From positions 64,001 to 128,000 of the forward strand of contig CBDCNQ010000004.1 of assembly GCA_965219445.1 (NCBI GenBank): DNA of 64,000 nucleotides, in the 5' to 3' direction. Of this stretch, positions 46,404 to 50,985 are shown one piece after another. The stretch comes from Longimicrobiales bacterium (lineage in GTDB: Bacteria > Gemmatimonadota > Gemmatimonadetes > Longimicrobiales > Gaopeijiaceae). Numbering within the stretch: the first letter of the stretch is position 1; each line of letters begins with the position of its first letter. Made by a program: the position numbers and the translations under genes. A model generated the notes under the pieces. That model saw only the letters and a list, made by a program, of their open reading frames with translations, was not told the origin of the DNA and ran no database searches.

Positions 46404-47010
46404 GGGTTGCGTCCTTTCGTTTCAATGCCCGCGAGCGCTTGCAGTGCCCTCGAGGTGGTGGAGGTGATGACGATGCATCGACGTAGCTGAATTGCCAAGA
46501 GCGAGCAGGTGGAGCTTCCTTACCCACCATGGCGTGCCTCACGATTTTCGTGATATCGACCCTTGACAGCGAAGCAAAGGCTCGCTTTCCCGTCTTCTTG
46601 CGTGCCGGGGTACCCCCGGTGAGCTTGCCCAATCCCTCAACTGACCATCGAAGGGACACTCGAATGATTCCGGTTTTCCTTCTTAGCAAGGAGATCACAC
46701 CATGACGAGCAAAGCCAGAATTCTGGTGACTGGAGCGACCGGGAATACCGGAGGTGCGGTCGCGCGTCAGCTCCTTCATGAGGGCCACCCCGTGAACGCC
46801 CTCGTGCGGAGGCAGGATCATAGGGCGGACGCGCTCGCCAAGGGAGCTAGGATCAAAGGCATCATAGGGGCATGGCGACCGCTACCGGTACCGATCAGCA
46901 GCGAAGCAGCCCGAAGACGAAGAGGCGTTCTCCTCCGGGAACGGGTGCGCGTTCATCATTATTCGCGCAAGCAAGCAACCCAACCCGTCCTATCCAAGAG
47001 GAGAACGCCC

Positions 47011-48066
47011 ATGGAGAGATATATCGGACTCGACGCACACGCGTCGAGCTGCACGCTGGGGATTGTAGGCCCCAGCGGCAAGCGCTTGGGCTCGCAGGTG
47101 GTGGAGACGAACGCGCGGGCGCTGATCGAGGTGCTGCGAGGGATTCCGAGGAACCGGCACTTATGCCTGGAAGAAGGGACGCTGTCGGGGTGGCTGTACG
47201 AGGTGCTGGAGCCGCACGTGGAGGAGCTGACGGTGGCGGGGGTCGGCAAGAGCCGGGGCCCGAAGACCGACAAGCTGGACGCGTTTGCCCTGGCGGAGAA
47301 GCTGCGGATCGGATCACTGGAGACGAGGGTCTACAAGAACCGGGGCCAGTTCAGGCGGCTGGGGGAACGGGCGAAGAGCTACGACTTCCTGGTCGGCGAC
47401 ACGGTGCGGGTGAAGAACCGGCTCAAGAGCGTGCTGCGCTCGAGAGGAGTGGCCTACGGCGCGGGGCGCTCGGTCTACTTAAAGCGCGACCGGGAGGAGT
47501 GGTTGGCCAAGCTGCCGGAAGCGAGCAGGACGACGGCCGGGTTGCTGTACGAGGAGCACGACGCACTCGTGGCATTGAGGGCGAAGGCCGAGAAGGCGTT
47601 GCTGGCGGAAGCACGCAAGCATCGAGAGTGGCATGTGCTGAAGACGTGCCCGGGTCTGGGTCCGATCCGGACGGCGGAGCTCCTGCCGGTGGTGGTGACG
47701 CCGTACCGGTTCCAGAGCCGGAGCAGGTTCTGGGCGTACTGCGGACTGGGCGTCGTGATGCGGAGCTCGTCGGACTGGGTGCGGGGTCCGGGTGGGCGGT
47801 GGGTAAGGGAACCGGTACAGCAGACGCGGGGGCTGAATCGGAACTTCAACCACACGCTGAAGCGTGTGTTCAAGGGCGCGGCGACGACGGTGATCGGTCG
47901 GGCCGAAAACGAACCCTTGTACCGCCACTACGAGCGACTCCTGGAGGGGGGCACGAAGCCGAATCTGGCGAAGCTGACGATCGCGCGTCAGCTCGCCTCG
48001 ATCGTGCTAGCGGTGTGGCGCACGGGCGAAGCGTACGACCCCAAGAGACTGGAAGCGACGGAGTAA
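47011..48066 (+). CDS. IS110-family DEDD recombinase (transposase), 351 aa
   Basis: GAGGAG RBS; YIGLDAH (D), CLEEG (E), KTDKLDA (DD); C-terminal PGLGPI..YCGL..RSSS domain. Confidence 0.93.
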   Translation: MERYIGLDAHASSCTLGIVGPSGKRLGSQVVETNARALIEVLRGIPRNRHLCLEEGTLSGWLYEVLEPHVEELTVAGVGKSRGPKTDKLDAFALAEKLRIGSLETRVYKNRGQFRRLGERAKSYDFLVGDTVRVKNRLKSVLRSRGVAYGAGRSVYLKRDREEWLAKLPEASRTTAGLLYEEHDALVALRAKAEKALLAEARKHREWHVLKTCPGLGPIRTAELLPVVVTPYRFQSRSRFWAYCGLGVVMRSSSDWVRGPGGRWVREPVQQTRGLNRNFNHTLKRVFKGAATTVIGRAENEPLYRHYERLLEGGTKPNLAKLTIARQLASIVLAVWRTGEAYDPKRLEATE

Positions 48067-48139
48067 ACCGGCCTGGGATCGGCGAGCGTGGGGTCGAAAG
48101 CGGTCACAACATGGGGTCCGACGAAACGGAAGCGAACCG

Positions 48140-48330
48140 GTTACAGGGGACAGCATCCATACACACCGTGGGCCGGGGCAGAGAGCCCAAGCCCCCACTC
48201 AAAGGCTATGCACCCCTGGAGAGCCGAACGAAGCGATGGGCCACAGAGTCCCAGATAGAAGGATGGTTCCCGCTCCAGAGCGGAGAACGCGACGGCTGTG
48301 AACGTCTTCCGGACTGCGATGCGGACCCTG
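48140..48330 (+). ncRNA. Putative bridge/seek RNA of the IS110 element (boundaries approximate)
   Basis: Stem cagggg/cccctg encloses an internal loop with tacacacc (48160-48167) and tcaaagg (48199-48205), matching the insertion site; atagaagg (48255-48262) matches the element right end plus core. Confidence 0.75.
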
Positions 48331-48551
48331 CGAGCGCACCCCTCCCCACCCTGAGTCGTCGACCGGGCAATCCAAACCATGCGGACGCCGACGGTCAAAA
48401 AATGAGCCGACGGCGCGTGGGGAAGGTGCGTCTTGACCGCCAGCCCCATAGAAGGGTGTGTAAAAAAAGAGGCGACGTACCTTTCCGCTAGGTAGTAAGA
48501 AGTTAACCAGCGAATCCCGGGTGAGCGCCCGGGGGAAAGGAACGATGCCTC

Positions 48552-49797
48552 GTGAGGAAGAATATGGTGGGACCCGAGAGTGAGTCCAGCACGCCGACGT
48601 GGGAGTGCTTGGAAGCGCTGGTTCGTGAGAAGGCCCAGGAGATGGTCCAGCGGATTCTGGAGGAGGAAGTGACGGAGTTGCTCGGCCGGGAGAAGTCGGA
48701 GCGGAAGACGGTCGTAGACCCGGCGCCAGGCTACCGCAACGGCTACGGCAAGGCTCGGCGGCTGGCGATGAGCTCGGGCACGATCATGCTCCGACGGCCC
48801 CGGGTTCGAGGCATTGAGGAGCGGTTCGAGAGTCGGGTGTTGCCGTTGTTCGCACGACGGACGAAGGAGGTGGGTGCTCTGCTTCCGGAGCTGTATCTGC
48901 ACGGGCTGGCGGAGGGAGACTTCGAGCTGGCGATGCGGGGCCTGCTGGGCGAGGGGGCCCCGTTGTCGAAGTCTTCGATTCGGAGACTGCGGGCGGGATG
49001 GACGGCGGAGTTCGAGGAATGGAGCCAGCGTCGCCTGGAGGGCCGTGAGGTCGTCTACGTATGGGCGGACGGGATCTACGTGAAGGCAGGGCTCGAGCGG
49101 GACAAGGCAGCGCTGCTGGTGGTTCTCGGTGCGATGCGAGACGGGACGAAGGAGGTGTTGGCCCTGAGATCGGGCTACCGAGAGTCGGTCGAGTCCTGCT
49201 CCGAGGTGTTGCGGGATCTGAAGGCACGCGGCATCGAGGCGCCCCGGCTTCTGATGGCGGACGGCAACGCGGCGATCTGGGGCGCAGTACGGGCAGGTAT
49301 GGCCTGAGGCGGGCGAGCAACGGTGCTGGAACCACAAGATGAGGAACGTGCTGGACCGGCTGCCGCAGCGGGAGCAGAGCGAGGCGAAGGATCTTCTCAG
49401 GACCGTGGTCTACGCACCGAGGCGGTCCGAGGCGCTGAAGGCCCGTGAGGCGTTCGCCAGGCGCTACAGACCGTGGTATCCGAAGGCGGTGGATGTACTC
49501 GAGGACGACTGGGAGCGGATGGTGGCGTTCTACGACTTCCCCGAGGATCACTGGAAGCATCTACGCACGACGAACGTGGTCGAGAGCCCGTTCGCTGCGC
49601 TACGGCTCAGGACGACGGCGGCGAAGCGATTCAAGCGGGTCGAGAGCGCTACGGCGCTGATCTGGAAGTTGCTCTTGGTGGCCGAGAAGCGGTTCCGAAG
49701 GCTCGACGCTCCTCACCTCCTCAAGGACGTGTTTGAAGGAAGGAAGTTCGAAGACGGAAAGCCCGTCTCAACCCAACAGCGGAAGAATGCCGCCTGA
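48552..49797 (+). pseudogene. IS256-family (Mutator) transposase with +1 frameshift near 49291-49293
   Basis: YRNGY, LYLHGL..GDF, WADG, MADG. Removing one G gives AVRQVWPEAGEQRCWNHKMRNV, continuing to LRTTNVVES. Confidence 0.88.
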
Positions 49798-50985
49798 TAC
49801 GTTTACACACCTATTGACCCAACCTCCGCCAAGGCGGGGGCCAAGGTAATCGTGGGGGACCTCCTCGAGCCCGAGGACCTCCGGCACGCCATGACAGACG
49901 CGCAGAGGGCCTACTACATGGCGCCATGGGCTCCAAACCAACTTCACGGGGCGATGAACTTCGCCGTGGCCGCGGCGGATTCCCGCTTGGAAGTGGTGGT
50001 CGCCATCACGCAGTGGCTGGCGCAACCGCAGCACCCGTCCGTCGCCACGCGGCAGAGCTATCTGACCGATCGAGTCCTCGACTGGATGCCGGGCGTCGAT
50101 TCGATCAGGGTGAATCCCGGATGGTTTGCGGACAACTACATGGCGGTGCTGGGCACCGTCGCGCAGCTCGGGATCTTCCCTTACGCGCTCGGCGAAGGAA
50201 AGGCCGCGCCGGTATCAAACGAGGACATCGCCCGCGTCGCGGTAGGGGCGTTGGTGAACCCCGGGCCCCACGTCGGCAAATACTACCGACCCAGCGGTCC
50301 CGAGCTCCTCGATCCCCATCAGCTCGCGGCGATCTTCGGCAAGGTGCTTGGGCGCTCCGTCACCTACCGGGACATGTCCCCTCGGATGTTCAACAAAGCA
50401 CTAAAGGTCGTGGGCATGAGCCCCGTGCTCATCAGTCAGCTCCAGCACTACCTGGAAGAGTATCGTCGCGGAGGCTTCGCTGCGGGGGCGCCCAACGATG
50501 TGGTTCAGCGCGTCGGCGGTTCCGCCCCCGAGGACTTCGAGACGATCACACGCCGGTACGTGGCGGCGAACCCCATGACCCGTCGTAGCTTGGCGAACAA
50601 GCTCCGCGCCATCGCGGAGTTCGCGAAGATCGTTCTGGCCCGGACACCGGACGTCTCTGCATACGAACAGAGGCAGAATCATCCCTTGCTAAGAGACCCG
50701 AAGTACGGCTTGGACTACGCGCCTTGGCGTAGATCACATGCCGTCCCGAACGCGTACGGGCTCGAGGGGGTTTTCAACCAGGGACACCTCCACCCGTCCG
50801 ACCAACGTACGTCCGGGATCCAGGACTCCATGGAGGCTGCTCAATGAAGATGGCTATGCATGCCCCTCCATCGATTGGAGGGCCGGGGGCGGACCGCGGC
50901 TGATCACCTTGCCCGGACAACGTCGACAGGTTCTGATGCTGAGAACCCTGGCCTTGGGCTTCATCCGAACAGCGAGGACGTAGCC

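Follow-up and report, generated by a model that had tools for sequence, protein, structure and literature searches.

An IS1111-layout element of the IS110 family in IS256 left terminal repeats and the RNA guides that probably direct it there

What directs one insertion sequence into the end of another? In the window, by which we mean the whole 64,000-nucleotide stretch of Longimicrobiales bacterium DNA that was analysed, an IS110-family element lies within the left terminal repeat of an IS256 insertion sequence, and it is very probable, judging from sequence comparisons across its relatives, that this IS1111-layout element homes into that repeat by RNA guidance. Comparison shows that the first loop of a predicted downstream RNA carries two variable guides and that a second loop reads the element's own right end. 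To the right of the core the 5' guide is complementary to the top strand, and the 3' guide is identical to the 6-7 bases that end in the core, which is A[G/A]. We propose that copies entered IS256 ends singly and were not carried as one composite, and that an active element would fill nearly every matching repeat, the empty ones carrying mismatches.

The nested elements and the recombinase

The IS256 copy (46844-49826) splits an NmrA-like gene and is flanked by a duplication, CGCCAAGG, at 46836 and 49827. Its left repeat has its outer part from 46844 and resembles the right repeat ending at 49826, and the uninterrupted left repeat occurs 42 times in the related genome G064, all of which upholds the initial annotation in naming an IS256 terminal repeat as the target (Table 1). 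The window's IS256 transposase is frameshifted, its longest open stretch being 260 aa as against 423 aa in 17 of the 22 copies compared. The IS110-family element (46859-48454, 1596 bases) begins 15 bases into the repeat and has 388 bases of non-coding DNA downstream of its recombinase gene versus 152 upstream. Its subterminal repeats share 12 matching bases with two single-base gaps, and their extensions vary with the register chosen. Joining the two element ends gives the arrangement TTGACC-17-CATCAT; by analogy with published IS110/IS1111 work, a junction copy bringing these motifs 17 bp apart would drive the recombinase and the downstream RNA, and the DEDD and serine sites would exchange strands. 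A linear sigma-70 promoter scan returned no sites, Rfam returned no matches over 46700-49900 at E up to 1, and no circle junction was found among the joints listed in four runs of contigs. One contig of run X17 (labelled sponge metagenome) spans 46844-48481, and the contigs of RNA runs X19 and X20 cover only 47094-47379 of the recombinase gene, outside the guide-RNA region, a gap that does not speak against expression.

Table 1. Features of the nested IS256 and IS110-family elements, in window coordinates.
Feature	Position	Strand	Basis or remark
5' part of NmrA/NAD(P)-binding gene, broken by IS256	46702..46843	+	Pfam NmrA, E 7.6e-09
Left copy of IS256 8-bp target duplication, CGCCAAGG	46836..46843	.	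sequence
Outer part of IS256 left terminal repeat (left target half)	46844..46858	+	AG core at its end (46857-46858)
IS110 element left end	46859..47010	+	152 bases
CATCAT, predicted -10 of circle-junction promoter	46860-46865		putative promoter
Imperfect subterminal repeat, left	46864-46877		in IS110 element left end
DEDD recombinase, 351 aa	47011..48066	+	D8, E54, D87, D90; S253 in GLGVVMRSSSD
Guide-RNA scaffold, conserved (predicted)	48144..48297	+	
Right target guide slot	48160..48168	+	TACACACC pairs with top strand of right target half
Left target guide slot, CTCAAAG	48198..48204	+	6/7 match to left target half, core included
Second module, layout like first	48223..48267	+	left donor guide ATAGAAG at 48255-48261
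IS110 element right end	48433..48454	+	second AG core 48453-48454
TTGACC, predicted -35	within 48433..48454		in IS110 element right end
Subterminal repeat, right	48438-48449		in IS110 element right end
Right target half, GGTGTGTA (inner part of IS256 left terminal repeat)	48455..48464	+	
IS256 transposase in two frames (48552-49307, 49339-49797)	48552..49797	+	Pfam PF00872, NCBIfam NF033543
Right-hand terminal repeat of IS256, ending at 49826, with the right copy of the duplication at 49827-49834	49802..49834	.	
3' part of broken NmrA-like gene	49835..50847	+	E 0.0004, below curated cut-off

The recombinase belongs to the IS110 family: PF01548 and PF02371 both score above their curated cut-offs, and the DEDD residues D8, E54, D87 and D90 are invariant in 35 sequences. 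NCBIfam NF033542 scores 112.8, under its cut-off of 140. Among 37 plasmid records at E up to 1e-5 the best full-length match is 27.6% identical, the named elements attain no more than ~24% over their full length, and the names ISEc11, ISKpn4, ISPst6 and ISPa11 do not appear among the plasmid hits; with at most 28% identity to plasmid records over its length, the protein sits on a poorly catalogued branch, in line with the earlier suggestion of a possibly uncharacterised subfamily. A PDB sequence search gave IS621 as its single hit, and the nearest folds to a predicted model (pLDDT 72.7) are IS621 and ISCro4 (PDB 8wt6, 9t56; E 3.8e-10, 18% identity), with S253 aligning with the IS621 serine. 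The serine motif GLG[IV]VMRSSSD is found in 85 homologs and generalises to GLG[IV]xxRSSSD, with SS where SG is usual; P or SG occurs in none (116/120 parsed), and the protein thus lacks the IS1111 motif GL-P----S(t)G. Searched against clusters at 50% identity, the protein profile picks up 719 with E up to 1e-30, a count that describes the reach of the profile and not the size of the branch. We place the recombinase on a distant branch not yet described, one that lacks the IS1111 motif yet, by its sequence features, would work like IS1111. A relative of 40% identity with a similar right-end layout has 15 matches clustered in one genome (G005; L006, L018, L027).

The guides, their flanks and the covarying RNA

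The eight strings on which the initial annotation was built all lie where it placed them: CAGGGG (48144), CCCCTG (48213), GTGGG (48168) and CCCAC (48194) in the proposed stems, and TACACACC (48160-48167), TCAAAGG (48199-48205), ATAGAAGG (48255-48262) and GATG (48235) in the proposed loops. First-order Markov resampling of the 384-nt region brings the two target guide words together in only 5 of 20000 trials. Their matches hold, with the correction that TCAAAGG and ATAGAAGG each end in a G that belongs to the scaffold, being invariant or nearly so (54/54 and 53/54 sequences). The predicted RNA is structured, with loops matching both target strands as in the IS110 family, and the long non-coding region downstream together with a top-strand complement lying 5' of the bottom-strand match gives the element its IS1111 layout.

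Do the guides vary with the DNA into which the elements are inserted? The family comprised the best 80 of 566 metagenome loci, 79 genome loci (best 80 of 479 confirmed) and 30 loci from relatives, 189 in all; 181 gave a hit, 165 passed a filter that asked for 45% identity or more and a match extending to residue 325, and of these 134 parsed while 31 did not. Element ends were located by end motifs and the donor guide, independently of the target guides. Agreement between right guide and right flank was 0.785, against 0.445 +/- 0.016 expected (79 distinct guides at the 118 loci with a right flank; reached in 0 of 5000 permutations), where the score is the best of three registers and the null was scored by the same rule. 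Similarly, the left guide, core excluded, agreed with the left flank at 0.800 against 0.348 +/- 0.033 (40 distinct guides, 83 loci; 0 of 5000 permutations), and its positions -7 to -1 match the flank in 23, 35, 31, 33, 38, 40 and 40 of 40. Kinship of the loci inflates both tests, and the informative part lies in the departures from the modal base of the left guide, which the flanks follow at 76 of 102. The match is poor at some parsed loci, for example L140, L167, L052 and L176. Both target guides thus vary together with their flanking insertion sites, and this agreement across relatives argues for what had been proposed from one locus, a natural RNA-guided IS110-family recombinase with readable target guides. 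No relative was confirmed among 23 pattern hits in viral contigs.

At L112 (whose junction is the same as that of L017), L127, L041, L146 and L148, the right junction carries three extra bases that copy the element end. Removing such bases restores the guide match (7 of the 118 loci start so, and 6 improve).

Folded singly, the sequence has a slight advantage over shuffles, with z at -1.30 over 390 nt and -1.70 over 91 nt, and structural support therefore comes from the family. In an alignment of 54 sequences, one per guide pair and at least 55% identical, the guide slots are variable columns within a conserved scaffold, and the structure tested, an RNAalifold consensus with three hand-made additions, has a covariation score of 0.273 versus 0.137, with 0 of 500 shuffles as high and slid controls at or below 0.073. 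The stems first proposed hold up in that the structure covaries across the family, and the inner stem needs shifting by two bases: the family register, 48170-48173 with 48191-48194, keeps its pairs in 54, 53, 31 and 53 of the 54 sequences, and the original register keeps them in 13, 32, 53, 54 and 13. The two modules are similar in layout, which suggests an old duplication. At L052:1972-2158 the outer stem of the target module is lengthened by an insertion of 21 bases.

The 4-nt AAGG core that had been read from the window does not survive comparison with the family. Left and right junctions agree at its four positions in 7, 58, 47 and 45 of 61 distinct guide pairs, and these counts are the ground on which we reject it; the core is A[G/A], often followed by G, and AAGG is a coincidence of the window's target. 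In one subgroup the target ends in AA and the donor in AG, and the left guide follows the target.

The second module reads the element's own right end, as first supposed, since the left donor guide follows that end across relatives (e.g., TCAGGAG 8/8 and TTAGGAG 2/2, the end being located with the donor guide and one mismatch allowed). When the end is instead placed at a set distance from the -35 motif, it matches the donor guide at 7/7 bases in 72 of 124 loci and at 6 in 5, and the rest are mostly mis-picked motifs. The GATG segment, first taken as a weakly visible right donor guide, occurs in seven variants although the left end hardly changes, being mostly GCATCAT; it shows no covariation and was rejected. 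Nothing in the candidate slot is clearly complementary to the left end of the element; the slot could pair with GCT at 48295-48297, columns that are nearly invariant. An IS621-type bispecific bridge RNA with four guides was set aside on the same ground, and we infer that the left end would be recognised mainly by the protein and the imperfect subterminal repeat.

Filled and empty IS256 repeats

In the element's own genome (G000), the outer IS256 left repeat precedes 23 of the 25 left ends of the element; of the other two, one is a diverged remnant and one an off-target copy with a flank that agrees with the left-guide region at nine bases. The off-target copies C2:336726 and L211 still resemble both guides. 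Not one intact empty 14-base target was found in the assembled genome, and every one of the 29 exact right-repeat sites, whose core region is different, is unfilled. All five IS256 copies without the element have a changed target; in four, the change falls on the third or the fourth base to the left of the junction.

Left repeats were counted by exact pattern as filled, intact empty or altered empty in relatives of 95-100% identity, giving 5/0/10 in G062, 2/0/1 in G063, 6/1/2 in G065, 1/42/1 in G064 and 0/3/0 in G061. The filled and empty IS256 bodies of G062 are intermixed, as little as 1 base apart (14 copies), and a C-to-A change in the G062 left guide brings it to 7/7 matches. The 42 unfilled perfect targets of G064 count against saturation, as does the single intact empty target beside six filled ones in G065. 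For G064, the only account we have is the putative inactivity of its one filled copy, which carries R49Q and G101R at columns invariant in A1 and, by this reading of its sequence, may be dead. In G061, a copy of 95% identity has a changed left guide that matches the right repeat at 6/7 and the left repeat at 2/7; its left junction is the outer right IS256 repeat, and all 8 of the IS256 left ends read there are empty. The right junction of this copy is unrelated, non-IS256 DNA, and the retargeting event is therefore half-read. The filled and empty sites suggest two elements in competition, with a pattern of escape and counter-adaptation.

How else might the altered empty repeats have arisen? 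It is quite possible, though we do not favour it, that targeting is real and that these repeats are ordinary IS256 variation or assembly-polishing errors, and not escape variants or excision scars. Reads from the 23 filled sites could have pulled the element's G into the empty ones, and three of the five changes add such a G; intact empty repeats are present as loose ends in run X1; and the left and right IS256 repeats already differ at the altered positions. Against this reading, all ten G062 empties have a non-AG core, in two recurring forms, and three G000 empties that are otherwise identical to the common IS256 each carry a different change at one spot, for which P is ~1e-5 if three changes may fall anywhere in the 14 bases at background divergence. 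This excludes random mutation as the source of the altered G000 empties, and polishing errors may still account for them.

A bolder extension of the preferred reading, which we regard as rather unlikely in its entirety, is that a large undescribed bridge-recombinase branch, marked by the SS motif, a two-module RNA and a one-armed donor loop, contains one lineage that was retargeted to IS256 ends and entered an arms race. Plugging of the left repeat would immobilise IS256, core variants would escape and multiply, the guide would counter-shift (even to the right repeat), and rare excision would leave an immunising one-base scar.

That one or a few ancient insertions in an IS256 end were afterwards spread by IS256 transposition as composites, the guides being relics, we consider improbable. 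Several composites do have perfect 8-9 bp duplications, and recombination between copies, to which the mosaic haplotypes testify, could erase linkage. Yet 13 host IS256 copies are near-identical and the others differ by 21-270 bases of ~1370, so that the element sits in several IS256 types; identical IS256 bodies hold different element haplotypes; off-target copies exist; and the 21 copies read, which represent 21 different mosaic haplotypes, all have the same guides. Element haplotype shows no linkage to host IS256 (Mantel r -0.11, p 0.89, 16 pairs), a test of low power given the 13 near-identical hosts, and this weakly favours repeated independent homing. Finally, the idea that protein or DNA structure chooses the target and that the loops have merely captured flank sequence, which the weak single-sequence folding would allow, is very improbable, because the matches lie within a covarying scaffold, at two fixed slots that are hypervariable, and do so across dozens of distinct relatives, as in the tested seekRNAs described in PMC11187229.

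Several observations concern the IS256 copies and the genomes that hold them. Both ends were found for 25 IS256 copies, 9 of which scored as having an 8-9 bp duplication, and the flanks of several others match another copy, which suggests rearrangement between copies or misassembly. At L297 (G000:C4:1169767-1171668), a group II intron (Rfam RF02001, RF01998; 500-aa frame) lies in the inner IS256 repeat directly behind the IS110 right end as a third nested layer. Tandem repeats of the element's 3' part (the end of the recombinase gene, the whole RNA and the right end) occur at G000:C5:1612735-1613246 and at L193 (G063), the right end being joined to a site inside the gene; there is one extra copy in G000 and two in G063, at different sites. 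They could be assembly errors, and they recall the RNA-only circles of ISPpu9 (PMC12288879).

IS256 targeting is seen only in the group of 95-100% identity: among 90 flanking frames from 66 loci there is no IS256 transposase, and 3 are IS91 transposases. Of 60 guide pairs, 34 have in common a related target that is like an IS91/ISCR oriIS (L122, L136, L161, L040, L170, L145-L150 and others), and the right flanks of several such loci are homologous for 45-190 bases where the left flanks are not, as expected at the ends of mobile or repeated DNA. This commonest target of the relatives may be an IS91 oriIS, and the target of L189, as read from its left and right flanks, looks like the start of an integron attC site. 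The relatives' consensus resembles the ISCR1 oriIS printed in PMC13023784. A target profile scored against IS91 genes gave nothing above shuffles behind any of 17 scorable genes; 22 of 30 loci had been supplied, of which 5 were too short, and a script assigned the orientation.

Relation to known elements

Much of this layout has precedent. In PMC11187229, the IS1111 group is defined by a top-strand complement 5' of a bottom-strand match, and a downstream RNA, reversed guide order, a junction promoter and natural retargeting are described, together with the motif G--P----SG and an apparent 4-bp duplication once claimed for ISEc11. The order of right guide before left guide (48160 before 48198), which the initial annotation pointed out, is present but not unusual, having been reported there for all IS1111 seekRNAs tested. 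The element shares with ISEc11, ISKpn4, ISPst6 and ISPa11 of that paper the downstream non-coding region, the guide order, a predicted junction promoter, natural retargeting among close relatives and, with ISEc11, the apparent 4-bp duplication. Unlike these four, it has imperfect subterminal repeats, the motif GLG[IV]xxRSSSD instead of GL-P----S(t)G, and an explicit, covarying guide for its own right end; the subterminal repeats of the IS1111 group are perfect or near-perfect over 11-13 bp, with 7 and 3 bp extensions. ISEc21, from the same paper, is likewise guided by RNA into another insertion sequence, but its target is an IS3 transposase gene and its RNA lies upstream.

With IS621 and ISCro4, as treated in PMC11208160, the element shares a RuvC-like DEDD and a serine domain, a two-loop RNA and a short core, and it differs from them in its downstream RNA, its reversed guide order, its A[G/A] in place of a CT core and the lack of support for a right donor guide. 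For 93% of IS1111s that paper also predicts a bridge RNA at the right end, where the bases that bind the donor often lie within a multi-loop. PMC13626964 and 10.1101/2025.10.25.684509 describe routes of excision and of top-strand copy-out, and the latter states that target regeneration was not detected.

The literature searched, which covered few subscription papers and no supplements, yielded no report of targeting to IS256 ends. The closest parallel in choice of target is IS4321 and IS5075, for both of these and our element are IS1111-type insertions into the terminal inverted repeat of another transposon; as their descriptions set them apart, theirs is a Tn21-family repeat and ours an IS256 repeat. 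Partridge and Hall are said to have described the targeting of Tn21-family terminal inverted repeats by IS4321 and IS5075 in 2003. The mechanism is thus already known, as is landing in transposon ends. What is new is the distant protein branch that fails the IS1111 motif, its IS256 target and the pattern of occupancy.

The element provides an IS1111-layout recombinase that is far from the characterised ones and ready for testing. Its guide code, read from about 80 natural variants, gives the positions of the slots, their reach and the registers tolerated, indicates that the second base of the core need not match between donor and target, and bears on how IS1111-type elements recognise their own ends. 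Finally, six genomes hold IS256 repeats that are filled, empty or altered, which makes the competition of two insertion sequences directly measurable.
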